Origin: Psilocybe cubensis
Lineage: Eukaryota
NCBI GenBank assembly: GCA_017499595.2
Contig: CM039008.1
Coordinates: 1,860,001-1,924,000, forward strand
DNA length: 64,000 nucleotides
Reading direction: 5' to 3'
This document shows, piece after piece, positions 15,901 through 40,603 of this stretch (within the stretch, counting starts at the first letter, position 1; each line of letters starts with the position of its first letter). Under the pieces are notes generated by a model that saw nothing but the letters and a program-made list of their open reading frames with translations, did not search any database and was not told where the DNA came from. Position numbers and translations under genes: made by a program.

Positions 15901-16064
15901 TAATGGGAACCCAGATTTTGTTTTCTATTTCTACACGAGAGAAAGGTGGAAGGACGAAAGAAAAAGATTTTTTCTCGGGATGCGCTCCCCTTTGACTTAT
16001 TGGTTAAGATCCTCCAGTCAGTCATCATCCATAAGCCCAACCCGAGGGAAGGCTAAATAACTCT

Positions 16065-17428
16065 TTAGGCGGAGATCTTAGCCCTGAGGAGATTCTTGAG
16101 GGTTTCACCGTCTTCGGCGAACTTCTTGATACCCTCGTGGAGCTTATCAAAGGCCATTTGGTCTTGAAGAAGAGCCCATCGGAACTCGGGCTCATTGTCG
16201 ATGAAGCTAACCTTTGGGATAGGGTCGGCTTGGGCGGCTATAAGCAGTTCCGACAATTACCATCAACGGAACAGTCACGAATATCGGCCCGGAACGGGAC
16301 TCACCAGCGTTAGAGTCGAGTTTCTTGGGAACAGGGTCGGTGGACTTCTTGAGTTCCTCAAGAAGGGAGGGGGCGATGGTGAGGAAATCGACACCAGCAA
16401 GGGCCTTGATCTCTCCAACCTGGAAGCATATTTTAATCAATATTGTATAAACAATGATAATAATTGGGCGCACATTTCGGAAAGAAGCCCCCATGACAAT
16501 AGTCTTGTAGTGGTGTTGCTTGTAGTAGTTGAAGATCTTCTTCACAGATTTGACACCAGGATCCTCATCACCTTCATAGTTCTTGCCGGTGGATTTCTTG
16601 TACCAATCGAGGATCTGGTTTCGATTTATGAGCGTACCCATTCCATTATTCAAAGGGTCAACTTACACGTCCGACAAAGGGTGAGATCAGAGTAACACCG
16701 GCTTCAGCACAGGCAACGGCTTGTCCAAAGCCGAAGAGAAGTGTGAGATTGCAGTGGATACCGTCGTCACGCTCGAGTTCGCGAGCGGCCTGGATACCTT
16801 CCCAGGTGGATGCGATTTTAATAAGAACTCGCTCCTTTTTGATGCCAACAGACTCGTAGAGAGCGATGAGCTCCTTGGCCTATATCTGTGATCAGAGCCA
16901 TGTCATTTAGCGATACAAAGGATCGAACCTTGGCCTTGGTGCCCTCTTTATCGAAAGAAAGGCGGGCATCGACTTCAGTGGAAACACGTCCGGGAATGAT
17001 AGCAAGAATTTCCTTGCCGAATTCGACAAGCTGGTGGTATTATAGTCAGTCAAATGATGTGAAACATAGCTTGGAATGAACCCACAAGGCGGTCAATGGC
17101 AGCGTTTGTCTGATCGTCAATGCTTCCGCCTTTCGACTTTCCATACTGCACGGCAGCATCGATGAGACGAGCGTATCCAGGCTTGTTGGCGGCAGCCAAG
17201 ATAAGCGATGGATTAGTGGTGGCATCCTATACACATTTAGACATCTTAGAGTTACGCTCAAGGCGATGGTCGATAAATTTTACCTGGGGCTTGTAAACAT
17301 CGATGGCTACATCGATGAGATGAGCAACGGCGGGGATCTATAACATTGAAGTGCTCACTTTCGAAGTCGCCAGAGTCGGAGACAACAACGGTGCCAGTTG
17401 CTTTGAGCTGTTCAAGGGAAGTGGCCAT
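16065..17428 (-). CDS. TAL1: transaldolase
   Basis: Motifs [82 protein letters not shown] and [12 protein letters not shown], across GT-AG introns. Confidence 0.97.
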
Positions 17429-18911
17429 GATGGTGGTTTGGAGGAAAGAATGAAGGTTGTTTTCGTTCGATGAGATGGTCAATTATATTGGGCTCAGATT
17501 ACGGAGCGGGATGATGCAGTGATTATGTCAGCCTCTATGATCAAATGGTGACGAGGTTACTCCGAAATCGGTTTTGTCGGGAGGGTACACAGTTTACTCT
17601 GTTCAGGGGGAACGACAGATGTTAGGGGCCATGGAGAAATCGAAACTCTTCTGAGCGTGTTTGCGCAATATTCAGCCTTTATCTTCAGGGAAAAGAGATA
17701 CATACCTGGCCTCAGACACTGGCGAAGTACACAATACGCGCTTACAGCGCTGAAGGCATCCCGTGATGCAACGTGCTTGGCACCGATTTGTTGAGTAAGA
17801 ACGTTCGATAACCTCCCATAGAATCCCACAAACGCAGGTAGAAAGTTCCATATCTGTACCGATAATGCGACAATCTTGTCAAGGTGATGCCGGATACCAA
17901 GGCGCGCTGGTGTACTTCCCGGATCCGCTTACTTTAGCCCATGGGATGCCCTGAGATGCCCGATACTCTGACTGACCGGCTATAACAATGGCTTGTTAGA
18001 AACCTCAGTAGGTAAAGTTTGGTGGGATTTATTCCTGATGCGTATTCTGTGCCACGGCACAGCAATCTGGTTGAAATGTGAGTGAAGACCTCGTTAGGAA
18101 AGATTAATGATTAAACTCTTGAATTCCTCGAGAATAGAAAATAATTGCCAGCATAAGCTCCAATGAATGCGTCTAGGTGGCGATGATCTGAAAGCTACAG
18201 CAAGGAGTTCGCCTTGATGGTTGTAGTTTGACACTTCGTAAAGTGTCATATCGTTTCAAACTCAATGAGAAATAACCTCCAGAATAACCTGAATATACAA
18301 GTCCATTGGTTAGCAAATGAATAAATCCTTGATCCATATGACGTTTTGATTATCTTACAGGTTTAGTAGTCTTGCGGCAGACAGTCCTCCTGTTAGAAAT
18401 CGCGTTGTTATGGTACAGTATTGCCTACAAAAGTTCGTAATTGAAAGAGGTATTGGCCTGGGGAACGTTTCGGTCGGTAGCGTATAATGTTTTCTGCCTA
18501 CACTTTAAATTTTGAATCCAATAGTCTCAGTGATCGGGACATGTTTCATTTGACATGAATCAAAGGCAACACACCCACCTATTGACATACTGACAGAGCT
18601 TCAACTTGACTCAGGCCCAAAATCTCGCATGCGTCTAGAATGGCAGTAAACGGTGTTTACAATCGTTTATGGGATCATCCAGGCCAATAGCTGGCTGGTC
18701 CTAGTGTTTCCTTAAAAGAAAAAAGAACTGAATAAAATAGATAATGGGAGATTAGATTATTTCATACCTTCTCAGGAGTTTGCAGGAGAAGTATTTAGGC
18801 GCAATGCAAGCGCACTGGTGACTTGTCTTGGAACGCGTTCACGGAAAAGCCCGAATGAACCCAACGCGACACAGCGCGTGACTCGCGGTTTGACTGTATC
18901 CCAGCCGGATG

Positions 18912-19285
18912 TGTTAGACAGAAGAAAGTAATGTACTCAGTACGATGATGGAATCGACTCCGTTGTAGTGTATGCTACCTGTTAGACAGAAGAAAGTAAT
19001 GTACTATCTAATCGTGAGCATACTGTGTGAAGTAATAAGGGTGTAGGATAATAGTCCTCACCTCAGTACGATGATGGAATCGACTGAGGGAGGGGTTTTG
19101 TTTGTACGGTGTAGAAATACTGGAAAATTTGGGAGAACAAAAATATAAACAAACATTGGATGCAGTCGGTTGATCGAACTGCTTTTTATGGCAGGCGTTA
19201 TAGGCGCCTGCGATGCGCGTTACTGGACGCCAAGCGTCCTGCGCTTTTCGTGAGGGCACGCTTCGACTCACGCGTCCCTCCAACA
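18912..19285 (-). repeat. 3' LTR of the copia element
   Basis: Identical by eye to 36219-36592; ends TGTT...AACA. Confidence 0.97.
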
Positions 19286-19292
19286 CTCCTCC
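19286..19292 (-). promoter_or_regulatory. short polypurine tract (GGAGGAG) abutting the 3' LTR
   Basis: Plus-strand ctcctcc lies between the pol stop codon (19299) and the LTR. Confidence 0.65.
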
Positions 19293-19298
19293 GACGCG

Positions 19299-19613
19299 TT
19301 AGGCGGTATCGTTAGGCCGAACGAGTGGGTCGCTTGCGTCACAGAGTCTCATGGCGACACAATGTCTCCAGTGAGCGGTGCGGCCGAGAGGTTTTGTAAG
19401 GATGTCGGCAATATTCTCAGAGCTGGCCACATATTCGATGCGCACGTCACCATCCGCAACTTTCTCCCGTACGTAGTGCTCCCTCACGTCGATGTGTTTG
19501 ACTAGGGCAGTCCCGGAGTTGTTGTTGGCGATGTGGCGCGCGGCGTCGTTGTCTCCTCGTAGCACCAAGGGGCGTGGCACCGGAAAGCCCGTCTCCTCCA
19601 GCGAGGAGGCTAC
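19299..19613 (-). CDS. copia pol C-terminal RNase H fragment, separated by the KDZ insertion
   Basis: VASSLEETG...LRGDNDAA...KHIDVREHYVRE...NIADILTKPL, typical of the Ty1/copia RNase H end. Rejoins in frame with 31903-36006. Confidence 0.93.
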   Translation of the reverse strand, partial: VASSLEETGFPVPRPLVLRGDNDAARHIANNNSGTALVKHIDVREHYVREKVADGDVRIEYVASSENIADILTKPLGRTAHWRHCVAMRLCDASDPLVRPNDTA

Positions 19614-19699
19614 CCACATGACACCTGTAATTACCCTGCTTATATATAAAACCCTTGCACTGCAATAAAATGCTCCATACATGGCAGCAGGCACTTGCT

Positions 19700-20220
19700 G
19701 CATGGATAATCTATTATCCATTTACTTAGTCTGCCTATCAATTATCCATTCCGTTATCCAAGAGCCTTGTTATCCATTATCCATTCCCGTGTGCGCCATT
19801 AACAATTGTTTCTATCCATTGTCCGCCGTATCATCCAAAGGGTACATTATCCATAGCCCCGCTTCATGATCCAACAGCCGTTATCCATTTCTGTGCGCGC
19901 CATTAATAATCTATTCCATCCATTGTCCGCTGTATTATCCAAAGGGTACATTATCCATAGCCCCGCTTCATAATCCAACAGCCGTTATCCATGTCTGTGC
20001 ACCCCATTAATAATCGATTCCATCCATAGTCCGCCCTCTTATCCAAAGGGTATATTATCCATATACCCCTGAATTATCCAACTGCCCACTATCAATTTCC
20101 ATGCAAACCATTCATGACCCGCTCTATCCATCATCTGTATTCTTATCCATGGGTCATTTCCCCCTTTCATACCACGATATTCATTGCCCTGCGATTATCC
20201 AAGAGCCGTTTATCCACTCC
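19700..20220 (+). repeat. left subterminal array of the KDZ element (TTATCCA-like motifs; three ~104-bp tandem units)
   Basis: CCAAAGGGTAYATTATCCATA recurs at 19835, 19939 and 20043, with many TTATCCA/TCATCCA/CTATCCA motifs. Confidence 0.9.
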
Positions 20221-20440
20221 CCTGCGCCTTATTCAACACTATCTTCCAAGAAAACAATTACAATTCCAAGAAAACATACACTATAAATATACAGAATCAC
20301 TAAAAGGATGTCAAGATGTACAAGGTACGTTCTGTCTGCATCAGCTGGATGCGAGCGCAATAAAAAGCTCAAGAGAATTGAAAAAAACAGTCTGAATGTC
20401 CAAGATCACGTGTCAAAAACAAATGCCAGCGCATCACGCC

Positions 20441-23292
20441 TCAAGCCTTCGCTTTCTTTGTTCTTTTTTCCTTCCCAGTTTCCTCCGCCGCCTTCCTCTT
20501 GTTGTTCAGTTTCGCCTTTTGGAAGGTGTTGAAGGTGTTGAGTAGGTCACTTACTGCTAATTCCCAGAGACCATCCGAGGCTTGAGCCGAGTACCACCAC
20601 TTTAACCCAACCATCACTGTCAACAGCCCATTGGGTCCACCTTTCCGTAACGAAGCCATTGAATCTTTTGCCTTCGCAGTCTCGAACGACAACGGAAGGG
20701 AATTCGGGGTTTTGGTTTGACGCCACGCCGGCTGTATGGAGTTCCACCAGGTCATCCATGACTTCTGAAATTCGTCTTGACGGATAGCTGGGATAGCGGT
20801 GTATTTGCGGGATGAGGAAAGCCATTTCCCGAGGGCTGTTGGTCTGCCTTTCGCGGGGAGCCTCAACTGCAACGGTAATCAGTATCTTTATCTGCTTTTG
20901 TGCATGATCCGGGACTCACAGAACTCGTATCCATCTCAGCAATTTCCATTCTCTCGAAACTCTCCCATGCGCGCACACATTCCTGCCATTTTTCTACCTC
21001 GATATCTTTGAATAGATATTCACTCGCTGCCAACAGCCATGCTGTGGTCTGTGGAGCATCCTTCGAAGCTGCTGCCTTTCTGTTACGACTACGCGTTGCA
21101 CTGGCGTCCAAGTTCTCGCTTTTGTCTGGAGCCGCAGTCAAAGGTGCATGCATGCCACTCTCGGGAATAATTGGATCGTTTACTGCATGGTTGGATAGAA
21201 CTCCAGCTGAGTTTGTGGCGCTGAGCACTGGCGCTGACGTCTGGGCAGGGACTATGGTGTGAGGTGCTGAGATGGAATGGTTTGGGTCCAATAGCATCGG
21301 TGCGTTTGCCTGTCCTGCCATCATATCCTGACTTTGTAACATTTGGCCATGTAAACCAGGAAGCGTCACTGTGTTGTTTGTGTTGAGGGCAAGTGCGGTT
21401 CCCATCATGTTTGGATCCGCTGCGTACTGTTGCAGGGCCAGGTCAATTCTATCCCATTCCTCTTCTGAAAAGTTCAAGGTAAGTCCATCGCCCCTATTCG
21501 CATCACCCGCTTGTAGCCGCATCATATCCTGGCCTACAGCAGCTGTCAACTGGTCTATGTCTTGGCCACCAACTCCATCCGTCATAGAAATGGCAGCACC
21601 ATAAGGCAAGAACGCAGCAACTGGATTTGGGGCCACCTTGGCCTGTTGAGGTAGAGGATTGGCAGGCGGAAGGAAGTTTTGTGCCTCAATGGTAGCGTGG
21701 GTAGCACCATTTGTAGCTGGGTAACAAGGTGGGCTTGGACTTGCCACACTTTGAGTCGGTTGCACCTGAGCTGGTTGGACTGTGCTTTGTGTCATGACAG
21801 GAGCCTGAGCAAAGCCGATGGCCACCGCCGGCGCCGCTGTCATAGAGGCCATTGCAGTCTGTTGTGCGGCCTCAGGGGGAGTATGAGCTGCAGTTATGGT
21901 GTTTGGAATAGGGCCAGAAAGCTGAGCGGCACTTCCCATGTGAGCATTGGTTGATGAGATGGGTACTGATGCAGCTGTATAAGTTGGATGGAAGGGCACC
22001 TGATTGATAGCAATTGGAAGGCCAGAAAGCTGAGCGACACTGCCCATGTGAGCATGGGTTGATGAGGTGGGGACCAACGCAGCTGGGTCGGGCACCTGAT
22101 TGACAGCGATTGGAAGTGCATTGCTCTGAATCTCTGGTTGTGTAGTCACAGGGGGAGTTGTTTCCGACAAGACATTTTCTTGCCCTGCGTCGCCGGTTTC
22201 AACTTTGCTGGTACTGGCAACTTGGTTCTCTTCTGGCTTTGCCTTTGAGCTATTGAGAGTTTGTCGGTCGCGATCCTCTTGCGCTAAAGAAAATGGTTGA
22301 TTAGGTCACTATGTGTTAGAAATACAGATAAATTGCTCACAGAAAACATTGTATAAAAAAAGTCTGAACGGCGATAGCACATGTTGGTAAAAATGTTCAT
22401 TCGCAATAGAAAACAGTTGTTCATATTTGTCTCGACCGTTGTGGACAGCGACAGTACGAATTTTGCCTTGATCAGCAGGCTCAGGTCCTCCAGCAATTAC
22501 TGTGAAAACCCATCCGGTACGACTGCTCATTTCATCTATAAACGCTTGGATAGTTTCCGGCAATGTCAAGAGATTACTAACTTTGTATCAGTAAGACTTT
22601 AGCACAAAGAATAGATCACTTACATTGCGCATTCTTCTGGAGACATGACTTCCGGCATGTCAGGAATTTGTCCCTTCAGCTCCTTGAGCTTTGCCAACTC
22701 GGCACGAATTTCCGCCTTTACCTCATCAGACTCGTCATTCCAGGCCTCCCCGGTGCACTTGTTGATGATTGCAATTCGGTGACCTTCAGGATTGGTGCGG
22801 AGAGCCTCTATTACTCGTGGCCTAATGCGTTCATCATAATATTTCTTGGAATACAAATTTGTTTCCGAGAGAAGTCGGGGAGCGTTGTTGCCACCAATAA
22901 CAATGGTCGGACCTCGCCGATGTTGGGTGCCGGCCCCACGATTATTAAACCAATTAACAATTTGCTGTTACAAATATGACCTCGTCAAAGAAACTCATAC
23001 ACTAAGTATGAATTGTGCTTACGTTTTTCCGCAACTTAACCCATTCTGCATGAGAAAGTTCGGTTTTCGTTTGAGGCAAAACAACAGGTGCATTTTTCTT
23101 TTTCTTCTTCTTTTTTGGAACAGTCATTGGTCTAACTTCAGCCTCAGGCGTAGGCCACAAGACAAAAAATTCTTGGTATATTTTTGTCCAAAAATTGGGG
23201 GTGGTTTTTGTACGCTGGGACGCCTGGAACTCAGGAACCTTGGCGGATAGAAACTCAATTTGTTCGGGAGTCCCCCACGGTAGCGGCGGCAT
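20441..23292 (-). CDS. KDZ cargo gene 1: multi-exon protein with homeodomain-like and HMG-box-like segments, a low-complexity linker and a Trp-rich C-terminal domain
   Basis: Exons WGTPEQIEFL..FFVLWP / QIVNWFNNRG / YSKKYYDERIRP..CTGEAWNDESDEVK / TGWVFTVIAGGPEP / RPTALGKW..WMTWWNSIQPAWR..KGGPNGLLTVMVGLKWW. Domain calls are by resemblance only. Confidence 0.7.
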
Positions 23293-23594
23293 TTTGATCT
23301 AAGTATAGCAGTTGTTCTAAGAATAAATGAATGTCAAATTGTTTGTTTTTTAAGCGCACGCAAACTCACCTCAAATAACAGAGTTAGACTTAAGGTCCAG
23401 AAAATGCAGTAAGACCTTCTAGCTACTTCTTCGATTTGACGGCAATAGCTTGCTTACATTATTGAGAGATTCACCGCAATTTACCGTGTAACTGTACAGT
23501 TGCTGATGCTTCTTTGGACTCTGCATATAAAGATGCTCCTATCTGCCGCAATCTTATCCTTAACTCCCTACTCGCAAAAAAAACCTCTCACAAA

Positions 23595-24664
23595 ATGGCT
23601 CAACAAAGTACACCTCCCCCAACTCTCCCTAATTCTACCGTCCCTCCCTCTACCGCCCCTGCAAGCCGTATAATGTCTACCCGTGTTGGCGACGTTATCA
23701 ATCTCCTTCTTGCACTAAACAATGCTGGTACGTGCCCATTTTTGAGTTTCATGTTAATTTCAACTTGTTTACATTTAATCAGGATTAGAAGTTGTTCGTA
23801 CACCCGATGGCGTTGATCATGCTTCAGGGTTGGAAAACCTTGCCATGGGGGAGCTTATCTTGATTCTCCAAATCATGGGCATTCATGTCAAGGGTAATCG
23901 CGCTACTGCTGCACCCCCTCCTCCTTCTGATAGTAAGTCATCTTCGACTCCCTTTAACCTAATGTTTTATTTAATTGGACTGTAGGCCGTGATCCCTTGG
24001 TCCAAGAGATTGAACAGATGGTTATTTCATCTGCTCGTCGTCAGGCTATTAATCTTTTCTTTAGGCTTACCAATGGGCCGTTGAGTAAGTGAACACTGTT
24101 CATACTATCATGCTCAGCACAATCTAATTAATTTTAGCCGTCCCACCTGTCATTCTTGAAGAGTTATCATCAACTGTGGCTCCCCCTCCTTCGTCTGTTG
24201 AACCACAGGCCACCGTCACTGATCCTGCCCTACTTCCTCCAAAGTCCCAGTCTGCCTCCGACACTGTCATGCCCAAAGGCTTTGTGTGCATGTCCTGCAA
24301 CACGTATAACCCTATTCGCCCATCTGAAAAGCCAGTCTACGTTGTGTTTTGTGGTACAGATGTGGGGGTCTTTGACCATTGGTATGTTCCACATTCTTTT
24401 GAGATTGCATTTTGCTCAATTTAACACATATTTAACAGGAAAGATGCTCAGAGCCTTGTTTCTGGCATATCTCATGCTTGCCATTGTCGTTATAATAGTC
24501 GCGAGGAGGGTGAGAGGGCGTTCCAAGCTGCTTTGACTGCCGGAAAGGTTCGCATACTTGGTAATCCTATTGCTGCGCCTGGAGCTATTGTCTCTTCCTT
24601 GTCCCCAAATGCCCCCAATGGCACCTCTGGCTCCTCCAGCGAGGCCTCTAGTAGCTCGGATTAA
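23595..24664 (+). CDS. KDZ cargo gene 2: protein with an RNase H1 N-terminal (hybrid-binding / Cauli_VI-like) domain and no catalytic domain
   Basis: Spliced C-terminus reads CMSC..PVYVVFCGTDVGVFDHW/KDAQSLVSGISHACHCRYNSREEGERAF, matching the pattern YxVxxGxxxGVxxxW...VxG....F/YxSxEEA. TAA at 24662-24664. Confidence 0.72.
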
Positions 24665-25014
24665 TGAGTAGACTTACTCCACCCTCGGGGTTTTTCCTTT
24701 TCCGTTCAATATCGTGTAGACAGCACCATTTGTCACCGCGTATGAAAAGTTTCCCCGCACTTTTAGTAGCACCACTTGTATCTCTTGTACATCTCATTTT
24801 GATTTCTTGTCTGTGTTTCCGAATATATCTTGAACTTGTGCTGCTCTCCATATCCGTGTGAATGAAATCTTCAATAATCAAATAAAATATTATTGAATGT
24901 CTCTTTTGTAGAGTCATTATATTATGCCATGTACCCCCATGCACCGTAGCTTCAATGTCGAACGATATACAATGATGTTTGTACTATATTAAAAGTCCAA
25001 TAGAAGTAATAACC

Positions 25015-25708
25015 CTATTGCGAAACCTTTTGAAATTCAAAGGATTTAGCATTGTAGTTGCGTTCAACGAATTCAAGGTCTTCCATTGCAGTCAATTCAA
25101 TCTCTTGCAACCAAGATTGTGTCTTCTCTAGCAGTTTTGCAAGAGCGACTGTCTTATTCCACTCTGGGCCAACTCCTGAACACATATATATATGGTTTTT
25201 ATATCGGGAAATTGGCCCAAGAAAGTGCTCTATCTTGTCAACCGATTCCGATAATTCGTGCATGTCTTGATTGCTGATAAACTGGAGGCAGATTGCCTCA
25301 GTATGTGCAATAGGATCCGATTTGATAAAGGTGTTGAAGCGCCGGTAGACTCGAAGAACTTCGTCCAACCAAGTGGCCGCCGGTGGCTTTGACTTGGAGA
25401 CAGGCTCTTGTTCAACAGCCTGTGCTTTACGTGCCGTTTCAATTCTAGAAATGAAGATTAATTCAATCTATAGAGATTATGCACATTCATAATCAGCAGG
25501 AATACCTTTTTTGTTGGATGCGAGCATATTTTCTTCTGCGACGTCGGTTTATGCTATCCTTGCATCTAAAAAACATTATAAAACATGTTTGTAACCAGAT
25601 TTATGGGAGGAAAACAACTGAATGCTACTTCTCATAATATTTCTTGCTCTTCTGCCTATTTGCGGCAAGTTTCTCAGCTTCAGAAAAATACTTGCGCTGT
25701 CGTCCCAT
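25015..25708 (-). CDS. KDZ cargo gene 3: basic N-terminus plus helical domain, function unknown, 3 exons
   Basis: MGRQRKYFSEAEKLAANRQKSKKYYEK / KDSINRRRRRKYARIQQK / ...WLDEVLRVYRRF...GVGPEWNK..., joined by GT-AG introns. Confidence 0.6.
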
Positions 25709-26288
25709 TGGTAAAGGTGAAAGCCAGGTAGCGATTTATTAGAAACTTTGCATTACTTACACGCCATTTCAGGGCTTCGTCTGACTTTTTTAACTACCAG
25801 GTAAACCCCCCCTCCAAAGGGTACCAATTGAAACATTGAATTAATCTACACTCAACTCTCGTCATCCAGAGCTTTACAACCATCTGTGCCGATGTTCTAT
25901 GGTTTTTGAACTCTGCAAGATAAGTTTTCAGGCTATGTCTAGACTGGGATTGAAAATGTAAAATAATAATAGAAGACCTTACCGTCATCCATTTGTTCGT
26001 TGGCTATCAATGGCTGGCAGCACCCTAATGTCAACCTTCAGCTTCATTATCCATTTACTAGTCCTTTATTGATTGGGACTTACTTTACCGTCATCCATTC
26101 ATTCAATTGTTATCCATGAGTTGTTTGCAACACTCTTGTCCTCGTTGTCCATTTCCTTGCCTGTTATTGATCAATTATTTTTGCTGACTCGCTGCTTATA
26201 AGTTGGGATGAACGCCACAAAACTCATCTGCATCACCTTTGACCTGCCCATAGACACCACTATCGCGTTTATCAGCAACTCACAACCA

Positions 26289-26817
26289 ATGGCCAAGGTT
26301 AAGCAAAGACGCCGTCGTACAGATAATTTCAAAGGTCCATCGGTGAGTAGACTTGAGCCTGATTGTTATAAAATGTGATCATTTTTACTAAATTGTCGTT
26401 CAAATTTGTAGGCAGTCACAATAGAGCCCGGCATTAGACCAGTTACATTGGATACGAAGTCCAAACAAGACAAATTTCTCGCCGATGCTGGCCCATATTA
26501 TCGCCAGGCCAAGTCTAAGGGAGAAAAGGAAGAGTTTCTTCACGAAATCAGCCAACTTTGGTTTAGAATTTGGCCGGAGGATCCGTTGAATACGGCAGAC
26601 ATTGATTTTGCACGTCACAGACAAAAGAATATTATGAAGGTGAAAGTTGTGTTTATATTTTTGTATGCCGCTAACTAACGTCTATATGTTACAGAAAATC
26701 AGAACAAGGCTGTTACTCCTCGGTGCCTTTGGGATTGTGGAAGGAGATACGTTGTGGAGGGACTTTATTGCTGCCAAAATGCACGAGCTCCATCCTGACA
26801 AGCTACCCTCTGTCTGA
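26289..26817 (+). CDS. KDZ cargo gene 4: small protein resembling the N-terminal domain of cargo gene 1, 3 exons
   Basis: MAKVKQRRRR.. / QDKFLADAGPYYRQAK..EFLHEISQLWFRIWP / KIRTRLLLLG..PSV*, with canonical introns. Confidence 0.55.
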
Positions 26818-26892
26818 TCTAGCCACTGTTTTGTTCGGCTTAATGTACCTACTACATAGTGGTCCAGATTTTAAATTTGCACAAATTATACT

Positions 26893-29800
26893 CTAGTGAC
26901 ACTCAACCATTTTGTATGCATTACGGCCTTCTGACATGGTCGTCAACTTCTCTGTTACACCATCCCATTGTTTCGCACAACGGTCACCTATATCACGTCG
27001 TATATCTGCCTGTTTCTTTGCATAAGCAATCTTACCAGAATTGATAGCTTGTGCATCTCGGTTAGGTACATCCGTCGAGTCGATGATATCCTGTGCACGA
27101 GAATCCCACTGAGCGGCTTGCCAAGCAAAAAAAGCAATAACACGGCGCATCTCCTCTGCTAATAATACACACTCCTCTTGCCAGCGATGTGCGCGTGCAC
27201 GGGCTTTGCACCATTCGATACGAAGAGCTGGACACTAGCATTTGTTTGCATTCAATTAGGTAAGGTAAAGACAACACACCTGCCTGTGTACACTTTTCGG
27301 CGTCTTCGCCCATACCGTGTACCTTCCATATCCAGGACAGTTTCTTGCGGCCTTCACTTCCAGAGTCGTCCATAGAGCTCAGTCCTCTAACATCAGTGTC
27401 CAGCAGTGGACGAAGGATATCACGCCACGTGTAGTATACCGTTGGCGTTGAAAGCAAATCAAGAGCTTGATACGCAACATTGTATCGCGCTGTTGCAAAT
27501 TTAATCTTTTCTTCAACAGCTGCGAGCAACGTCAAGCTTCTTGTCTGCATACGCTGTCCTCGTGAGTGTCGCTTTTTTGAGTTTAGCATATGTGAGCGAA
27601 GGAGTAAGAAAGCACGGAGGTTGTTGAGGCAATCTTCAGCCTGGGCATATCGGTACTGCGATTCGCATTTTAGCAATATGTGGGATGAAAATCGGATGGT
27701 TTCTGTGTTGTAGGAAGGCAAATATAGCTTGATATCCTGTACCGCTACTGGTGTCTCAGCCTGCAAGTTTTCGCGCGCACGCAGAGCTGCAACTGCAGGC
27801 ATATAAAGGTGCTGTATATTTATCCAAGCATCAATGCGTCGTTTTAATGAGTTTGATCGTTCGAGAATTTTAGTCTGTTGGATGTTCGTAGAATGGGCTC
27901 CAAGTTTGGAGATGTCAAGCGCAAGTCGTGCTCTAGTCTTGTTTGTAACCATGTAAAAAATAGCCTATAAACGACGTACTGTGATTCCTCAAGCTGTAAG
28001 CCCTGTGATATCAAGACACTCGGAGTTACTTCCTCATGTAAAGTAGTCATCTCTCCGCGTTTTAATGCATCTGAGTCCTCACGAGCTAATTGAAGACGAA
28101 CATCGGATTCCTTGACAGAACCTAGCAATGCACCATAAACAATAGAACAAGAATCAGAAAAATACACGTACTATTCTTCGGAATCACATAGGGATTCGGT
28201 TGACTGGAGTCCTTTTCCCATGTCAAACACATCTGGGTCCATTCCGACGTCGATTCTTCTGGCAATGCAGCGTCAAACTCAATGAACGCCTCGACCTGTT
28301 CTTGTCGCTCTTGAATAGCTTCCTTCGCTTTCCGTAAAAATGTTTCAACTAAAGTGCTTGTCAATATATGTGCATAGATTGCAGAATATTACGACGTACC
28401 AATCGTGATAATTTTTCGCCAGTTATAATCTCCAAAATGGTCATCCAATGTGTCGTTCCGAGACCCTGGCCCCATTTCCTTTGTGCTGCTGGCTATACCG
28501 TTTGCCGTTGCCCATCCTCTCTCTGGTGCCTCCCCATCTGTGCGCCCAACTCCCGGAGTATAGTTGAAAGAGAAAGACGTTTGGCATTTCTGAATATGAG
28601 CAGCAAGGTGGAATTTTGGTACGAGGTAGACAATGGAGAGATTTGATGGATCGGAGAGCACATTCTTAGGATATAATTGGCACCTTTTCATGAGATTGAT
28701 CCACCATTGGCAGGCAATGTCGTAGGAGACAACAAGACGGAGTAAAAGTGTGGCTGCGATTGTTGATAAGAAGAAATAATCCATATTAACGTATCTACGG
28801 CATCATGTGAGTCATGTTGACATGCAAGCATGTGACTGAAGACCTTACCTTTCACCCTTTTGTAAGTCTCCTACTGCCACGGGTCGCTTCATGTCGTGTC
28901 GACTACATTCGGCTGTACCAAGTCCACTTGCTGCTGTCCCATGTCCACCTCGTGAGTTAGCCGATTTGATAGCATCGTGGTTATTGCATGAGCTCTTTTC
29001 ATCTGCAACTTGACCATCGTAGTTTGCCAAGTAGTTTTTGAATTTGCAACTCTCAACCATATAGGCATATCCATGATTAAGCCCAGGGTCTCGCTCATCT
29101 GTAGATACGTTCATTCGCTTCAAACGAAAGTTGGCATCAATAGCTATAAAAAGAGAATAAAGCCATCTATTTTTGGACGTGACAATCAGACCCAATTGCC
29201 AGTGGACAACACCAACGAGTAAAAATTGGTACGTACTGTTCTGATTCTGGCCTCTCCTTCCAATTGTCGGGTAGATTGATGCCCGGGTGGGGACATGCAG
29301 GACATAGAACAGCACATTCACCCTCTTTAGTCCCATTAACACCGGTCTCAGAGTGACCTCGACCCATCCGTTTGAGGAGACGTACATGACGCCACTCACG
29401 TATGATCCTCAAGAAGACAGGATATCTGTCCTACATATTGAATATTAAAGATAGCAGGATAATAGAAGAAATGGAAGAGCTCACTGGTGGTGCCTTTGTG
29501 CCGGTGTTGTCTGTCAACCGTGATAATGTAGAGTAATACTCGTATCCCGAGACCTTCGAGTTAAATGAAAGGAGCTGAAAGTGTTCCAGCACATCAAATG
29601 TAGCCGCTGTTTTGGGATCGCCTACTGTAGAAGGAAATAAGCGGGCGCGAAGAAGTTGGATGGGCTTGGATGGTGCAGAAGGGCACCCGCAGTAGTCTAA
29701 GGCAATTTCATGGATTCCTGTACGCGCAATGACCACAAATTCGTCGTTGAAAGCTACCATTGGTATAGGACAGTCATCATGTCCCAGCTGCACTCGCATT

Positions 29801-30593
29801 CCAAGTTTCTTGAGGCTGGTCCTGCGAAAGTAATGTCCAGTCCAGACCTGCAAATTTGTCAATAATTCAGTATCATCATAGCCAACCCCACTCGCCTCGA
29901 TTCTATGAAATGGGTTGACCGAATGAGACCGGAGAACACAAGCGAGACACAACAGAGATCCGCTCCAACAGTCTTTGCAGCGAAACGCGCCTGCTTCGAG
30001 GTCCGAAATACACCCAATTTCAGAGCATTTCTGGAGATTTGCCTGCCCACCAATACCCTCCAGCCGGAGAAACTCTTCAACGTAGGTGTCAATATGCGGA
30101 GTCCAGAAGTGGATGGGATGTGTCTAATCGAATATGTGAGTGGTAGGTGCTGAAACACACATCTATTAGAGCAGGAAACTGTACGTACCGATTGTGTTTT
30201 TCGTTTTTTCTGTGGAACCTCTTCTTCAGGATCAGCTTGAACCTTATCTCCAGTCTTCAAGTTTGGCTTGAGATAATTCTTTAGCCCCAATGCCTCCAAT
30301 TCGCATTCTGCCATTTCTTCCAACTCAAGATCACCATCAAAAATCCTATACGGAGATTCTTCGCTCAGCACCCAATCAAGTCGAGGAGTAGGCGATTCCA
30401 CAGAGCCTAGAGGAGGGGGTGTGGGAAGCATAGGCTGAATTCCTTGCGGCAGCGGCATCCGTATGGTATGGTGCGTGCGTCCATGGTATTCAGTGTGAAT
30501 GTCGCCAAACGATGCTGTTTTCGCGTCTCGTTCATCAGGAGAGATATATTCGTCATAATAAACCTTTTTCTTGCGATTCACTCGGCGTTTCAT
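26893..30593 (-). CDS. CxC2 cysteine cluster + KDZ transposase, about 10 exons, apparently intact
   Basis: CxC2: CKDC..CLAC..H..PFHRIE/VWTG..QLGH..C..GIH..YCGC..QLL..LFPST..P.TAATF. KDZ core: AIDANFRLKR, CSRHDM, GDLQKGERY.NMDY, SYDIACQW, VPKFHLAAH, GRTDGEAPERGW, MGPGSRNDTLDDH. Confidence 0.93.
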
Positions 30594-30719
30594 GTTGTAA
30601 GTTGAAAGAACCTGCGAGCTAAGTGTATACACAAAAGAGACAAGGAAGCTTTGAACAGAAACGTCATTTCCAAGGAGACTAGAAGCGGAAACAAGAGGAT
30701 GTATAACTCATACTGATAT

Positions 30720-31812
30720 GGATTATTAGCTCAGAGTGGTTGATGGATATTTTACAAGGAAATGGATAGACTTCAAACATTGATGGACAGTAAGGAAAGG
30801 TATCAATGACAGTGAATGATGGGAAATGTTACGGGGAACCAAATTAATAAGTGCCTGATCTTCACGGGTGACAAGCGGGATGGATTAACGGGAGGCCATG
30901 GATGACAAGGGCATTCAATAATCAACGTTGGTATGGATGGAGACTGCGCACTGCACGGGTGTCAAGAGTGATGGATAAGTAGAGGGGCAATGAATGATTA
31001 GGGCAATAAATGAGCGCGATGGATAATGAGAAGAGAAATGGATGTTGAGGGTGATGAATAATGAACGCACATATCGATAGGCGCCTGCACTACGCGGGTG
31101 TCAAGCCTGATGGATAATCAGAGAAATGGATGTCGAGGGCGATCAATAATGAATGTGGGAATGGATGAGGGGCAGCCTGTGCAATGGTGGAGGGCGATGG
31201 ATAATAAGAAAGGCAGTTGATGTCGAGGATGATGAATAATGAACATAGATATCGATAGGCGCCTGCACTGTGCGGGTGTCAAGCCTGATGGATAATCAGA
31301 AAGGCAATGGATGTCGAGGGATATCAATAATGAACGTACATATTGATAGGCACCTGCACTGCGCGGGTGTCAAGCGTGATGGATAATCAGAAGGGCAATG
31401 GATGTTGAGGGAGATCAGGCTGATGGATAATTATATGGGCAACGGATGACAAGGGCAATGAATAATGAACGTACATATCGATAGGCGCCTGCACTGCGCG
31501 GGTGTCAAGTGTGATGGATAATCGGAAGGGAAATGGATGTCAAGGGAGATCAGGCTGATGGATAATCATATGGGCAACGGATGACAAGGGCAATGGATAA
31601 TGAACGTACATATCGATAGGCGGGTGCACTGCGCGGATGTCCAGCGTGATGGATAATCAGAAGGGCAATGGATGTTGAGGCCCATGGATGACATACTAGT
31701 TATGGATTACGAAGGGGTATGAATGACAGCGTGGGTATTGAATAATGGCTCAGCAGTTTGGGGAATACTATGGATAAAGTTCTAATGTATCTATCATAAA
31801 GGCGTTGGATAA
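30720..31812 (-). repeat. right subterminal array of the KDZ element (TGGATAA motifs; tandem units in multiples of ~45 bp)
   Basis: GATAGGCGCCTGCACTGCGCGGGTGTCAAGC.TGATGGATAATC-like block at 31076, 31254, 31345, 31480 and 31615. The motif is the reverse complement of the left-array motif. Confidence 0.9.
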
Positions 31813-31902
31813 TTATTGATGGGGAATGCATTGCCGTGGCTCATATATGAGGTATGCGCAAGGTCTTCTGGAGGTTGATATATAAGAACGACTGCTACGC
31901 CT

Positions 31903-34900
31903 CCACATGAGGTGCTGAGTGCCTCGGGATTGCGCTACATACTCCGCTTCGGTCGTTGACGTGGCTACCGTATGCTGATACCGAGCACTCCATGAAGTGG
32001 GACCGCCGCCCTGCATAACGACATATCCCGAGATGGATCTCCGCTTCTCCTTGTCCGCGGCGTAGTCGGCGTCAACGTAGGCAATGGGCACGTATGACGA
32101 GTGTTCGGGCCCACCATAAGTGAGCCGGAAGTGGCGGGTGGCCTTTAGATAGTGCAGGACGTGGGTGAGTGCTTTCCAGTGTTCAGGGCCCGGGTTGGAC
32201 GAGAAACGAGAGAGACAGGCGACAGCGTACGATAGGTCAGGCCTGGACGCCATCTGTAGGTACATGACAGAGCCCAGAACCTCGCGGTATGGCTTGTCCT
32301 TCATGAAATGGTGCTCGTCTTCCGTGGAGGGGCCTTGGTTGCGTCTGAGGTCTAGTCCTTGAGGGAGCGGGGTGTACTTGGGGGAGCAGTCAGCAAAACC
32401 AAATCGGGAGAGCATTCTGTCAATGAATCCTTCTTGAGATATAGTGACTGTACCGGTGTTCTCGTCCCTTGCAATGTCTAGCCCGATGACGCTTCGTAGT
32501 TTGCCCAGATCCTTTAGCTCGAAATCCTTTCCCAGTTCCTTCACCGCTTCCTGATATCCCTCCTTGGTGGTGCTGAGTCCGGTGACGTCGTCTGTGTAGG
32601 TGCATGTAATAGTGTGTTCGCCGTCCACTACCCTTGCTCTTACAGATTGATCTGCCCGTGATTGGTAGTATCCCATGCTAGACATGGACTTGTTGAGGGT
32701 GTCAAACCAATTGCGGCCGCTATCTCCCACTCCGTAGAGGCTTTTGTCGAGTAGTGCAACAAGATCAAGCTCCTCCGATTCGTTGTCGGCAGAGTAGGTG
32801 GCATTGTCCACAATCTTGTGCACCTCTCCTCCATTGGGGACATATGCCACTAGTTCGTAGACGGGACCATTTGGGTTAGGGACAGAGACAGTCTCGCTGC
32901 ATCGCTTGTACCCACGGAGAGAGGAGACTTTGTAGCCGTCTGGTTGTTCCATTAGGATTGGGATCTGGTTTGGTGCATTGAGATAGGCGCTGGCATAGTC
33001 AGCCTGCCAGAAAAACATCCTCGTGGTTGTTCCGGCCACCAGAATTGTTCTCACTGACTCGTATCTGACGGACGCGGCTCGAACTTCATTGAAATGTACG
33101 CCGGGGATGAGTGTATGGCCAAGGGCAACCAGTCTTGCCTTTCTCTTAGCAAGGTTGCCATCGCTGGTGAGTTTGACGGTGTATTTCCAGCCAGCGCGCA
33201 TGATCCTTGCACCCTTGGGGCGTTCCACCAGTCGCCATACTTTCATCCGAGCCATCATCTCCATCTCTTTGTCCATTGGCTCACCCCACAGGTCAAGGCG
33301 TGTAGCGGCCTCCTTGAAGGAAAGCGGCGTCCACAGGTCATTATTGCCGTCGCCTATAGTGGCAGTGGACAGCGCCAGGTGTCCCGCATCGTTGGTGTCA
33401 TCACCGGGAGGTTTTGGGTTCAGGCGAGCAGATGAACGGGAGGCGGGTGGATATTTGATGCGTGGACGGGAGGTCTTCTCGCGGTTGTCGTGCTCTTCAG
33501 CCTCTAGGGCAACATTAGATGACCCAGCAGTCGCAGTAACCGTGCCATCCGCCGTTGGAGCCTTGGAGTCTGAGCTAGTCGGTGGAGGGGAAGTGGGTTG
33601 CGAGGCATCCTTGTTGGGGGTTCCGGGGTTGTCGTCGTCCGCGGGGAGGCGAGTGCTAATAATAGCCTGATCGCGGTTGGTGCTGCTGTCAAAGGAGGTG
33701 TCCACCTCTTCCTCTGGTGGCTCCTGGTCAGTCGTACGATGTGGTGTGCCCTCCTCAAATACTACATCCCGCGAAACAAATATGCGCCCGCTGTCGCGTT
33801 CCAGTAGACGATATTCACCTATTCCAGCATATCCAACCATGATACACTTTACCGACCTCGGCGCCAGTTTCCCATTGTTGATGGCATCGGGGATCTTGGC
33901 GTACGCCACACACCCAAATGGGCGTAAGTGGGATACATCCGGCTTGATGCCAAACCAAAGTTCGAATGGGGTAGTGTCGGGGTGGCGGGATGTTGGCTGC
34001 ATGTTAATAAGGTAGATAGCTGTGGCCGCAGCCTCCCCCCAATACGTCCCAGGAAGCTTCGCGTCGTGTAACATGGTTCGGACCCTGTCAAGGATGGTGC
34101 GGTGTCCGCGTTCAACCATACCGTTGGCAGCAGATGAATATGCGGGGATGAATTCGTGGGTTATGCCATGCTCGGATGTATATGATTCCCACTCCGAGTT
34201 CTTGAACTCCGTCCCATTGTCAGTGCGGACATAGACCAGTTTTCGCCCCGTCACGCGCTCACCACGTTTGTGGTATGTGGCAAGGCATTCAACGGTTGTC
34301 TCCATGGTCTTGTTCTCCAGGAAGAACCCCTCACGGTACTCTGACCCACAGTCAGCCGCCTGCAGCATATATTCCTTTCCTCCAGGTGTTCGCACAGTAG
34401 CTGGTCCCCATAAGTCCATCTCGGCACGTTTGTTGACCTCTGTTTCCGGTTCCACCATAGCGTCAAATGGTCGACGGGTTTGTTTACCAAATATGCAGTC
34501 TTCGCAACGTCCATCGCACTTTCCGTGTTCAATGTCAAGCCCCTTCACGATCTCCTTTGATGCCATGGTACGGATGGTGTCTTCAGCAACATGGCCAAGC
34601 CGCCTGTGCCATTGGGCGAGGTCCACGGGTCTGGTGAGGGATCGTGCGGATAGTGCCTTGGGGCAGACGGTATGTGAGAAGGTCAGCCTGAACATGTCCT
34701 CATTCCCCATCTCGTCTGACTCCATGACGGCGTTCCCTTCTGGCGTGATAAACGTGGCGCGGTTGTTTGCAAAGACAACCTGGTATCCCTGGCGCAGGAA
34801 TTTTCCGATGGAGACGAGGTTGTGTTGTAGATTTGGGGTGTGCAGGGCGTCGCGAAATATTATGTTGGCAAGTTTCCCATTGTATACGATCCATTTAGAT

Positions 34901-36006
34901 ACTGATCCAATACCAGCAATGAAGAACTCTTCGCCAGTGGCCGTTGCACCCGACTCGTTGGAGCATTGTATCGGGGTGTAGTCGGAGAAGTCTTCCCTAC
35001 GGGGGAAGAAGTGTGCACTTGCTGCAGAGTCGGCATACGTGACAAGGTTGCAGTCTGCGTCGGATTGTTGTGGGAGGTCTCCTTGGTGCCGGGTGGAAAA
35101 GGCATAGTATTTTGCAGGGTCGGAAATTGATGCGATGGCGCTTGCGGCTATGGGTTTTTGGACAGGTGTGGTGGTACTTGTGTTTTGCTTGTTGTTGTCC
35201 TTCCCACTCCTGTTCCCCCTCCACCAGTCCGGGTACTGGCCCTCCATCCCACCTCCTTCTCGGAAGCACTTGTCGGCAGTATGTCCAATGCGTCCGCACT
35301 TTGGGTTGGCGCACTTCAGATGGGGGTGCTTGACTTGGGCACGGGTTGACAGAGCTTGCGCTACAGGCGGGGTTGCAGGTTGCATGGACGTAATGAATTG
35401 TGCGTGTGCTATCAAACGTGCTATGACATCCGAAGAGTCCGTCTCTCCATGGAGGGAGCCCAGGAAGGGGAGCCATGATGCAGGCATGGATCGCATGACA
35501 ATCATGCGGAACTTAGCATCTTTGATTTCAGCGCCCTGTGAGTTTGCGTAGTTCCACGCTGTCCTGAGCTTGCTGATGTGTTCTTCCATGTTGGCCCCTT
35601 CCTTGTATTTGATGTCGTTCAGGGCATTCTCCGCGGTAATGCATCCAAGGTCGGTCTTCGCATCTTTGATACTGGCAATGGATTTGTAGGTTTCGGCGGC
35701 CGTACCGTCCAGTTTGACACCAAGACCAATCGCGTTTTTGACGTTTAAGGTGATCAGACCTTGGGTCCATCCGTCTCGTTGTTTCCACTCGTCGAGTGAT
35801 GGGTATTCCGAGCCCCAGTAGGCGGTGGGCGGCTGGGGCGGCTGCTTGGGGTCTGGCGGGCTTGGTTTTGGGATGGTGCCGTCGAGGTAGCCCAGGGTGC
35901 CGCGTTGGTTTGCTACAGCTCGGATTTTTGCTTTGAAGGCAATCCAGTTGGAGCCGTCATATTGTTCGGAGTCTGGGAGTATGAAGGGTGCGGCTGACGA
36001 GGACAT
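31903..36006 (-). CDS. copia Gag-Pol polyprotein (gag, zinc knuckle, protease, integrase, RT, N-part of RNase H)
   Basis: CANPKCGRIGHTADKC knuckle, DSAASAH protease, WHRRLGH..CEDC, DLWGP..RTDNGTEF..NGMVER integrase, KARLVA..KSLYG..YTDD RT, YVDADYA..TEAEY RNase H. Confidence 0.96.
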
Positions 36007-36206
36007 GATGGGTTTAGAGTCTGTTGGGGTTGTCTGTTTCAGTGGGATCGATCGGGGCTGTAATCGTCAGTTATGGACGAACAGTTCTTGGTCGGGTCTG
36101 TAATCGTCAAGTGGGGACGAACAGTCGGTGTCGCTATCAGCGAAAAATTTTCTTTGGTTCGGGTTTGAGTGGACTCTTGTAGTACTGAGCAAAGTCTTAG
36201 GCTACG

Positions 36207-36218
36207 GGGCTCATAACC
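36207..36218 (-). promoter_or_regulatory. primer-binding site GGTTATGAGCCC (half-tRNA-iMet type)
   Basis: Immediately follows the 5' LTR on the minus strand. Resembles the Ty5/copia PBS that pairs with the tRNA-iMet anticodon stem-loop. Confidence 0.85.
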
Positions 36219-36592
36219 TGTTAGACAGAAGAAAGTAATGTACTCAGTACGATGATGGAATCGACTCCGTTGTAGTGTATGCTACCTGTTAGACAGAAGA
36301 AAGTAATGTACTATCTAATCGTGAGCATACTGTGTGAAGTAATAAGGGTGTAGGATAATAGTCCTCACCTCAGTACGATGATGGAATCGACTGAGGGAGG
36401 GGTTTTGTTTGTACGGTGTAGAAATACTGGAAAATTTGGGAGAACAAAAATATAAACAAACATTGGATGCAGTCGGTTGATCGAACTGCTTTTTATGGCA
36501 GGCGTTATAGGCGCCTGCGATGCGCGTTACTGGACGCCAAGCGTCCTGCGCTTTTCGTGAGGGCACGCTTCGACTCACGCGTCCCTCCAACA
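36219..36592 (-). repeat. 5' LTR of the copia element
   Basis: Identical by eye to 18912-19285; flanked by the PBS and the TSD. Confidence 0.97.
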
Positions 36593-37511
36593 GGATGCCA
36601 CTGCACTTCTGTTTGCCATGCCACAATTTCGTTTCCTTGCGCTGGAATTTCGGATAGGTTTTCTGTGCTTTGATGGGGATAGGGTATCAGTACTTTGGCC
36701 AGTATTATGTGAGGGAATATGAAGGCATACGTCAACCATCGAAAAGAAGTAGTACTCGACGGCAGTAAGCTATTACATTCCATTATCCTTGACTTGTTGA
36801 TGAAGGCACATTCATTCAGCTGTCGATTATTGAAGATGATGACGCGGATCGCTGGATTGACGCTTCCCGGACCATAACTGTTACCATGTTGCGGGGGCCA
36901 TAGCATGGGATATTTGTTTTTTGAGGAGACAAGCGAGACGTTGACATGGGTCGGGAAAGGACCTCATTATCTTCATTATAGCATGCACATAGAGCATGAG
37001 GAGCAGAATCTAGGCAGTGTCTCAAAGAAGTAAGCGATCCCTTCCTTAATGTCCCCTGACTTTCTCAACGAATGTATCATATGTCTAGTTTTGGTTCCAT
37101 CAGAGATTTAGGGAAAATCTTATCGTACAATATGATGTGATATAATTTGTATAATATGCTATCGTTGCGGCTGGAAGTGGTGTAAGTATTATACCACGGA
37201 TGATAGTATACCATGAGGGTTGTAATGTGATGATATAGCCAATGTCATGTAGAGCCGGTCTGCCAAGACTTTATCGCCTCGGGTCGGTATTACAACAAAA
37301 CGATCATCTGTTGTAATCTATATGCACAATTCCATTGGATTACACCTACATTATGGACTCGTTGTCATAATGATATCTGGTACATCTACTTGCTACATTT
37401 CTGATTTGCTGTGATCGTTATACCACATTCTTACACGCGTTCTTAAGGGTAATTGAATAATTCACGTGCAAACAATTTATATTTCTGTAATCCAAAAACA
37501 ATCTACATAGC

Positions 37512-39275: not shown

Positions 39276-39755
39276 GCTATACAGGATAGGATGATGAAAG
39301 ATAAAATTTTGTATTGGTTTTAAACCGATAGAAACAGGAGTAGCCATAGGCTTGGCCTTGGGTGCGGAAGGTGGGAAATGATTAACATTCTATGGAAATT
39401 TTCTACGCCACTTACTGCAGTGTGTTTCTGGGCTCAAAAACCTCTGTGCCAACGTGGATAAAGCCATAGAAAGAGACATAAAGGAGGAGAATAAAGAAAT
39501 AGATGAGGTGGCAAGGTGGTAGTAATGAATCAACAATCTGTAGTGTGACAATCGTCTGAGATCCACACTGTGGGAACAAAATTGATGGCTGAAAATTACA
39601 CCATTTGAAGACGTAGCCAAGCTTGGATAAATTTCTCCTTTAAATCTACATTCTAGCATCGTAATTCCATTCTAACATCGCAATTGCACGAATATCTACT
39701 ACACAAAACCACACATAACCCACAGAGGCAGGCATGCCCCGGGGAATCTCCACCA

Positions 39756-40603
39756 ATGTCTATCCAGTCATTCTTTCTTCTCGAACTCGAACAATACGTG
39801 ACGAGGTTATTGAAAGCTCCCAAGTTGAAGAATGCGAGGTAAGCATTTTAAAATTTGTGTAAAAAGGAAAAACTTTACTTACTTTAATGAGTGTATACAG
39901 TTGCACATACCACCTGCTTCTGTAGGAGATGACTTTGACATTCACAGCGAGATGGGGCCAGCTGTAGTTGCTGATTGCTCAATAACTAGCAATACTTTGG
40001 ATAGTGATGACGGAATTGTTATCTTTGAAGACCATTCAAACGGAGCTGTTGAGAGAGCCGTTGAGGAGGAAGATGAGATCAACAGATCTATTGAGAGAGT
40101 TGTCGAGGAGGAAAGTCAGCTAACTGTCGATTGGTCGGAAGAGTCAATGGAACGTCACATGGCCAATCTGTTTGGCCTCGATACTCAAGAACACATGGCA
40201 CAGTTATCTCAGGAAATTCGCGAAGCTGTGGAGCAAGAGATGGCTGCAAATTGTATCAATACTGGCAAGTTATAGATTTGTTTCGTTACATACCGATTCA
40301 TTGATCACTGATATGTGTCAACTTCTAGCTTCTGCATGCTCCATGGACCCAGCACAAGCTAGCGAAACTGAAAACAAGTCAGATCACAATAATCAGAGAC
40401 CAAAAATCATACCGATTTATCATTTCACACCCGTCGACTTCCCTGAACCACCCGCGCCATTACGCCTTGGGACTCCACGATGCAATGCGGGCAAAGCGGC
40501 GCGTAAAGCTCGAAAAATAGCGGCTGAGATTGCTACATTGGAAGGTGTCTTGAATGACTTGCGCAAGCGCCATAGACGCTACTTGAGGGAATCATACCTG
40601 TAG
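39756..40603 (+). CDS. hypothetical cargo protein (acidic middle, basic coiled C-terminus), about 3 exons
   Basis: MSIQSFFLLELEQYVTRLL.. / LHIPPASVGDD..EQEMAA / ..ARKARKIAAEIATLEGVLNDLRKRHRRYL*, with plausible GT-AG/GC-AG introns. No family recognised. Confidence 0.45.

Follow-up and report, generated by a model that had tools for sequence, protein, structure and literature searches.

What kind of transposon has split a young Ty1/copia element on contig CM039008.1 of the mushroom Psilocybe cubensis (GenBank assembly GCA_017499595.2), where exactly does it end, and do all the genes inside it belong to it? The window analyzed here is a 64,000-nucleotide stretch of that contig (positions 1,860,001 to 1,924,000, forward strand), and all coordinates below refer to it. 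A first-pass annotation had read the insert as a Zisupton-like KDZ element at 19622-31902, with an 8-bp target-site duplication (TSD) and with cargo genes. We found that the element occupies 19622-31903 (12,282 bp) and has the termini CACC at the left and GAGG at the right (read on the minus strand), as placed by the loose ends of other copies and by the same termini in related loci. It is a KDZ DNA transposon that is complete, very young and present in several copies, and very probably an autonomous, TET-less, Kyakuja-type element of an agaric mushroom that recently jumped into a young copia.

Sequencing runs X1, X4, X5 and X9 (4 of 13 listed) were compared over 17800-37700, with contig depth serving as a rough copy-number measure; for each run, the loose ends considered are a listed subset. 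The 8-mer CCACATGA flanks the present copy exactly (19614-19621 and 31903-31910) and has no further plus-strand occurrence. Removal of either 12,281 + 8 or 12,282 + 7 bases leaves the identical empty site, so the copia reading frame is uninformative on the choice between 8 and 7 bp. Among the loose ends listed, those of other copies lay at 19620 and 19622 (X1) and at 19621 and 19622 (X4) on the left, and at 31903 in both runs on the right, with two contigs per run. The coordinate convention was checked on the copia, where X4 has loose ends at 19285 and 36218, which amounts to a 5-bp duplication when the coordinate is taken as the last or first matching base; the C at 31903 is therefore part of the element.

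The left flanks of the other copies end in AGCTGGA and GTCTAGC in X1 and in GTTTTCA and ATCATTG in X4. A letter-by-letter blend of the two left 7-mers equalled the right-hand consensus at 7/7 positions in both runs, whereas under an 8-mer reading only 4/8 and 1/8 letters agreed. When TSD lengths of 4-9 were tried on these copies, 7 agreed with X1 and X4, and 4 agreed with X4 but not X1. The eighth base of the left flank was A, G, G or T, and all four copies keep C at 31903. At the present locus the TSD is CACATGA on the plus strand (19615-19621, repeated at 31904-31910), and the eighth matching base, the C ahead of this 7-mer, is a chance match to the last base of the element. Of 387 flank repeats of 6-9 bp taken as candidates, the 7-bp pair 19622/31903 gave the best inverted match, and five insertion sites agree with 7 bp, the Kyakuja length. 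The left end proposed earlier was thus right and the right end one base short; the other copies, which the first pass had suggested examining, do share these termini with differing TSDs, but of 7 bp and not 8. The middle position was A or T in all five target 7-mers, a number too small to establish a preference.

The host copia carries a 374-bp 3' long terminal repeat (LTR; 18912-19285), the last codons of the interrupted gag-pol (19299-19621), the main part of gag-pol (31904-36006, with gag, protease barrel, integrase and reverse transcriptase by Pfam) and an identical 5' LTR (36219-36592), all on the minus strand. The LTRs showed zero differences over 374 bp, as already noted in the first pass, which bounds their divergence at 0.8% or less (95% bound), and they are flanked by a GGATG duplication. 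Counted separately, the two pieces of the copia frame have 1368 and 104 codons and no stop, and so the predicted 1472-codon Gag-Pol upon excision was borne out. The copia is itself polymorphic, with 12 X9 reads joining 18892 to 36593. Loose ends at the copia LTRs in X4 and X9 represent copies elsewhere, and X9 depths would agree with one KDZ-free copia at the locus on one haplotype.

Comparison with uninterrupted copia and other strains, which had been suggested as a check, revealed the empty site, with 19613 joined to 31903, in a single X4 contig of 4703 nt and in 25 raw X9 reads with 17 starts. Run X9, which bears the same species label as X4, had no depth over the element at 88% likeness, except for small patches near 28.4 and 29.3 kb with many differences, which come from relatives. 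The family is absent from X9 and the insertion is polymorphic. In X1, the depth was 41.4 over the element versus ~10 for the flank and the copia (copia 10.1), indicating ~4 copies; in X4, it was about 30-44 versus 17. At least five insertion sites were seen. An empty site and four other copies with the same ends define a mobile unit with fixed ends and a TSD. The stored transposase record P0018 occurs on three contigs and P0001, which differs by one residue, on one; the proteins of genes 1 and 2 occur on five contigs each, under the NCBI label Psilocybe cubensis. X1 showed no variant letters over the element, and the listed flanks of X1 are not those of X4. These data uphold the view that the insertion is very recent and a full mobile unit, and the family is rather likely to be active at present.

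The ends of the element carry more inverted structure than first described. With the end at 31903, 21 of the first 40 terminal bases match in inverted orientation, versus 8 with the end at 31902, and only 14 of 100,000 shuffles reached 21. A 12-bp inverted box (19639-19650 on the plus strand, 31875-31886 on the minus strand) comes into register at offset 18 from both ends with the 31903 end alone. No inverted repeat of at least 30 bp was found between the element ends, so the statement that there are no real terminal inverted repeats (TIRs) held for long repeats and failed for this degenerate in-register repeat. The box had been taken as the sole inverted feature, which overlooked two subterminal arrays of TTATCCA in opposite orientations: 16 copies on the plus strand at 19714-20216, partly as 104-nt repeats, and 13 on the minus strand at 30894-31812, as 91/135-nt repeats. 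The left 679 bases hold 16 copies on the plus and 1 on the minus strand, the right 1103 bases 13 on the minus and 0 on the plus strand, and the density outside the end arrays is 0.16 per kb. A small internal cluster of the end motif lies between genes 3 and 4 (25987-26117, plus strand; 4 ATCCAT, 2 full TTATCCAT). None comparable was seen in the 6 relatives checked, which leaves autoregulation through this cluster unsupported.

Related elements were sought among metagenome contigs, giving 80 related loci (L numbers), mostly short, of which 25 have more than 3 kb upstream of the transposase. Six of them (L001, L070, L077, L060, L066 and L035) carry, at either end, inverted arrays built on motifs of their own, and L004 and L009, the closest loci with DNA beyond the transposase, have the same TTATCCA motif as the window. 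The end motif tracks descent, which is no demonstration of co-evolution with a binding protein. A GAGGCC end is present in five related loci (L001, L077, L003, L025 and L009). A terminal profile derived from four sequences (the window, L001, L070 and L077), whose own match is given by construction, placed L003, L025, L012, L053 and L056 above the best background score; L002 was not above it. An exact search of metagenome contigs with the left 33 bases returned 0 matches. The CACC-type end adjoins the 3' end of the transposase in L070 (13188-13230), L053 (5751), L056 (10371) and L012 (6561), and the GAGG-type end does so in L001, L003, L009, L025 and L077. Since relatives differ in the end type beside the transposase 3' end, the interior has flipped relative to the ends on more than one occasion.

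The element is filled by five genes, one of them a CxC2-KDZ transposase; the earlier count of five was confirmed, with domain matches and tiling of protein records on the window. Gene 5 (26893-30593, minus strand) encodes an intact transposase of 1085 aa (P0018; 1085/1085 residues tile the window), with Pfam matches to KDZ (PF18758, E 1.2e-64, model positions 1-217 of 217) and, in its N-terminal cysteine cluster, to CxC2 (E 3.8e-39); CxC1 scored E 0.06, below the cut-off. Together, these domains place it in the KDZ superfamily. Its candidate catalytic triad is conserved in 8/9 (D423), 10/10 (D544) and 14/14 (E610) of the rows that reach each column. The transposase models P0001 and P0018 differ by a 3' splice site, and both tile the window.

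Gene 1 (20441-23292, minus strand; P0016, 846 aa, 845/846 residues tiling) has three confidently predicted parts, with a low-complexity middle. The part at ~1-108 is helical and weakly homeodomain/Myb-like, with profile matches of E 0.012 and weaker (13 of 15 rows being homeobox proteins) and structural Z scores of 5.1-6.1 to homeodomain/Myb folds. The part at ~116-195 is HMG-box-like (top five rows at Z 6.4-7.2, rmsd (root-mean-square deviation) 2.0-3.7, 62-78 residues aligned), a common score level, and ~660-830 is an unnamed helical domain for which an atlas search returned nothing. At E 0.001, the gene 1 family comprises 1485 clusters. The two public gene 1 models disagree on the third intron (22284-22342; P0016 of 846 aa and P0020 of 878 aa), and both tile the window. 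Gene 2 (23595-24664, plus strand; P0023, 283 aa, 282/283 residues tiling) has an RNase H1 N-terminal hybrid-binding domain at residues 194-233 (PF01693, E 7.5e-7, above the Pfam cut-off; E 0.11 against 1qhk), and no nuclease domain was found in it. Genes 3 and 4 are unnamed, with starts and introns read by eye. Gene 3 (25015-25708, minus strand) has a basic N-terminus and a helical last exon, and its atlas search gave one unnamed cluster and dynein-like noise, with recognition below threshold. Gene 4 (26289-26817, plus strand) is similar to the gene 1 domain at ~1-108 (hhalign probability 75%, E 2.5e-5). Tet_JBP was not matched in 19 element frames or in P0001, P0016 and P0023, which sets the element apart from TET-bearing Kyakuja. 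Of 123 frames of 125 aa or longer from 14 related loci, 118 were searched and likewise gave no match, the 5 end-array frames being left out and intron-split genes being liable to be missed.

The four companions of the transposase had been regarded as cargo, yet they recur in a fixed order in related elements. At E 0.001, 17 of the 80 loci had a companion match (gene 1 in 9, gene 2 in 6, gene 3, through its last exon, in 11, and gene 4 in 11). In all 17 the companions lie 5' of the transposase in the order gene 1 (minus), gene 2 (plus), gene 3 (minus), gene 4 (plus), transposase (plus), and this order holds across transposases down to ~48% identity. None was found 3' of the transposase in 15 loci with at least 2 kb downstream. 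Judged by this conserved order, the companions appear to be inherited standard parts of the element and not chance cargo. Accessory genes are often carried by KDZ elements in fungi, according to a passage of PMC12477816.

In the window, the transposase gene is oriented opposite to the order of the relatives. A FastTree phylogeny of transposase residues 230-1000 was built from 8 protein records and the 48 of 80 loci with sufficient coverage. Rooted at the midpoint and free of labelled references, it grouped the window transposase with P0002-P0004, L004, L009, P0008 and P0009 with a support of 1.0; P0002 is a paralogue at 78% identity. In L004 and L009, which belong to this clade, the end array directly follows the 3' end of the transposase, so the inversion is probably derived. 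It is common to the copies, because one X1 contig of full depth spans 19942-31402. The best explanation is that the transposase gene was inverted against its companions in this family without loss of mobility. The stops of gene 4 and the transposase now face each other (26817-26893), and since they lie only ~75 bases apart after the inversion, the 3' ends of the two genes probably overlap.

Run X5, which we guess to be a probable RNA run and which does show spliced host transcripts in the flanking sequence, covered the element at 20310-22283 only, over part of gene 1. Its contigs give no strand, and the strand of introns was read from splice ends alone. X5 removes a sense-type intron at 20867-20919 (depth 24) and two plus-strand GT..AG introns at 20875-20939 and 21300-21359 (depths 49 and 34), joints that are not listed for the DNA runs X1, X4 and X9. 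No plus-strand frame in this stretch exceeds 74 codons unspliced. These data suggest antisense RNA over gene 1. The X5 coverage ends exactly at the gene 1 exon edge at 22283, with nothing upstream; the copy in that strain could be truncated, or the 3' end of an antisense RNA could lie there.

Zisupton, in Bohne's account of 2012, reportedly makes an 8-bp TSD and has true TIRs; it resembles the window element in its KDZ catalytic domain and large size and differs in the TSD, which is 7 bp here, and probably in the TIRs, the terminal match here being a degenerate repeat. Passages of Kojima 2025 (PMC12730594) give a 7-bp TSD, CA..TG termini and no TIRs for Kyakuja, and an 8-bp TSD for Zisupton and Dileera, with the CA..TG termini stated for Kyakuja-1_LB and -2_LB. 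Among the 5' ends compared from Table S1 of that paper, 23 of 36 Kyakuja begin with CAC and 7 of 36 with GAG, versus 0 of 9 fungal Zisupton, which begin with CAGAT, CGGAT, GCCTT or GGGGC. The window element has CAC at one end and GAG at the other, versus the CA..TG stated for Kyakuja. On account of the 7-bp TSD and the CAC/GAG ends, we placed it with Kyakuja rather than Zisupton: it is a KDZ member and probably a Kyakuja, though not of the TET-bearing kind. As far as the listed rows go (PMC12730594), the Kyakuja of Agaricomycetes share with it the KDZ transposase, the 7-bp TSD, the lack of a long TIR, the first bases CAC/GAG, a large multi-gene organization and repeated motifs near the end. 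It differs from them in lacking TET/JBP, in its size (12.3 kb versus 9-33 kb), in its ends (CA..TC here, versus the CA..TG stated for two of them), in a measurable degenerate 40-bp inverted repeat and in its end motif, TTATCCA versus GGGCC-type repeats read by eye in the listed families.

Cryptococcus neoformans KDZ1-3 are 9-11-kb multi-gene KDZ elements that were shown to move, as reported in passages of two preprints (10.1101/2024.08.15.608186, 10.1101/2025.05.19.654958). KDZ1 has an antisense non-coding RNA over one of its genes, the transposase, whereas the antisense-type splicing here lies over gene 1. Unlike the window element, KDZ1-3 have CxC1, a Dileera placement, TIRs of 139-241 bp and a TSD of 8 bp (4-8 for KDZ2/3), whereas the element here has CxC2, no TIR above 100 bp and a TSD of 7 bp. 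Given these mobile elements and the complete Kyakuja delimited in PMC12730594, the notion that fungal KDZ transposases are known mainly as protein families is not supported.

Several observations weigh against an autonomous, recently mobile Kyakuja-type element. The 7-bp pairs depend on blended two-contig consensus strings from runs that are possibly the source of the window DNA. L001, L077 and L070, in which both ends are apparently present, showed no 7- or 8-bp TSD by eye, perhaps owing to collapsed repeats in metagenome contigs, and in an automatic TSD search over 8 related loci palindromes swamped the signal. The Kyakuja placement was made from the TSD and the termini. The transposase structure prediction (predicted local distance difference test, pLDDT, of 47) was too poor to reveal an RNase H fold, and the protein had no PDB sequence match. 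For the DNA-binding folds of gene 1, Foldseek gave no hit at E 0.001 and Z stayed under 8, and among 66 gene 1 homologues HMG_box and Homeobox_KN were matched by one each. All four companions occur together in only 2 of the 80 loci (2 of the 25 with >3 kb upstream), X5 contigs show no transposase coverage, and no long read spans the element. The last point could favor a misassembly in which a repeat was wrongly placed inside the copia, as could the X1 junction contigs, which carry only 19 and 30 letters inside the element (threshold 31). However, the duplication is clean in a single-copy copia (X1 depth 10.1), and the end points and the 7-bp rule are the same as at other sites, which makes such an error scarcely credible. 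A Zisupton-like element with an 8-bp TSD, ends at 19622-31902 and no TIR would explain the exact 8-mer around this copy, and 8-bp TSDs are made by Zisupton, Dileera and Cryptococcus KDZ1 in the passages cited above. We nevertheless consider it very improbable, given the C kept at 31903 in four copies with other left eighth bases, the terminal G kept in five relatives and the box that is in register only with the 31903 end.

Two further alternatives concern the genes and the present state of the family. The four extra genes may be passengers, captured or co-inherited, with no part in transposition, so that the transposase alone reads the ends. No companion has a demonstrated function, gene 2 is in only 6 of 80 loci and the full set in 2, and the transposase carries its own CxC2 zinc domain. 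Against this stand the same order and strand in 17 of 17 loci despite transposases down to ~48% identity, the intact frames of genes 1 and 2, the 1485-cluster family of gene 1, and the domains of gene 1, which look nucleic-acid-binding. We therefore regard the passenger view as unlikely. Also unlikely, if slightly less so, is that a recent burst has fallen silent, with host silencing fed by sense and antisense transcripts of the gene 1 region: X5 covers 20310-22283 only, with antisense-type splicing deeper than sense-type, no transposase coverage and no long plus-strand frame. However, rare RNAs are lost from contigs and the element may be present only in part in X5. The absence of variant letters in X1, the differing X1 and X4 flanks and the intact transposase also speak against a silent family.

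Elsewhere in the window, a complete PlavakaB-type DNA transposon lies at 37098-47184, with the termini CATCA..TGATG, a 2-bp duplication, a Plavaka domain at 42765-43976 and a DUF6698 at 38256-38720. Loose ends at 37095-37098 in X1, X4 and X9 represent other copies and the empty site, and since an X5 contig reads across the empty site, this element sits inside transcribed host sequence. Host genes at 3042-16662 and 52572-63842 include peroxiredoxin-like, GAT-domain, glutathione S-transferase, transaldolase, GMC oxidoreductase and RING finger genes, and a TCTTCA microsatellite lies at 58789-58854.

For the Kyakuja-type element, we propose that the CxC2-KDZ enzyme, with an RNase H fold and an acidic triad for which D423, D544 and E610 are candidates, would cut at the CAC/GAG termini and insert with a 7-nt stagger in a cut-and-paste reaction; the KDZ transposase is described as RNase H-like in a passage of PMC5751038. 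The two ends do not share their outer bases, so their pairing probably proceeds via the 12-bp box at offset 18 and the inverted TTATCCA arrays. By analogy, the likely binder of the arrays would be the homeodomain-like/HMG protein of gene 1, perhaps with gene 4, and we give an even chance to a role of gene 1 at the element ends. The model for this is En/Spm (CACTA), which combines short CAC termini, motif arrays in opposite orientation and a second element-encoded DNA-binding protein, TnpA. En/Spm differs in its unrelated transposase family and 2-3-bp TSD, and binding is proven there and only proposed here. More tentatively, the CxC2-KDZ subgroup could consist of two-component transposons, in which a homeodomain-like/HMG protein reads a family-specific 6-8-base code in inverted end arrays that replace long TIRs, each family having its own code (TTATCCA here, others in L001, L070, L077 and L060). 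Spliced antisense RNA over the same gene might then act as an on/off switch, and the hybrid-binding-only protein might guard against RNA-guided silencing where other Kyakuja use TET.

A literature search of titles and abstract openings found no description of this family, although Repbase, Iyer 2014, Chavez 2014, Bohne 2012 and the bioRxiv supplements may cover the companions or TET-less Kyakuja; in the literature examined, no test of mechanism was found for this transposon group. This copy contributes a corrected right end, a box that falls into register, a transposase gene that has been flipped and splicing of antisense type. It is intact, resolved to the base and devoid of TET, in a group of transposons with ends first published in 2025, and it illustrates that a single insertion can mislead on TSD length and thereby on family. 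Its near-identical copies, together with a family-free strain and an empty site, make the element well suited to tests of how the ends are recognized and what the companion genes do.

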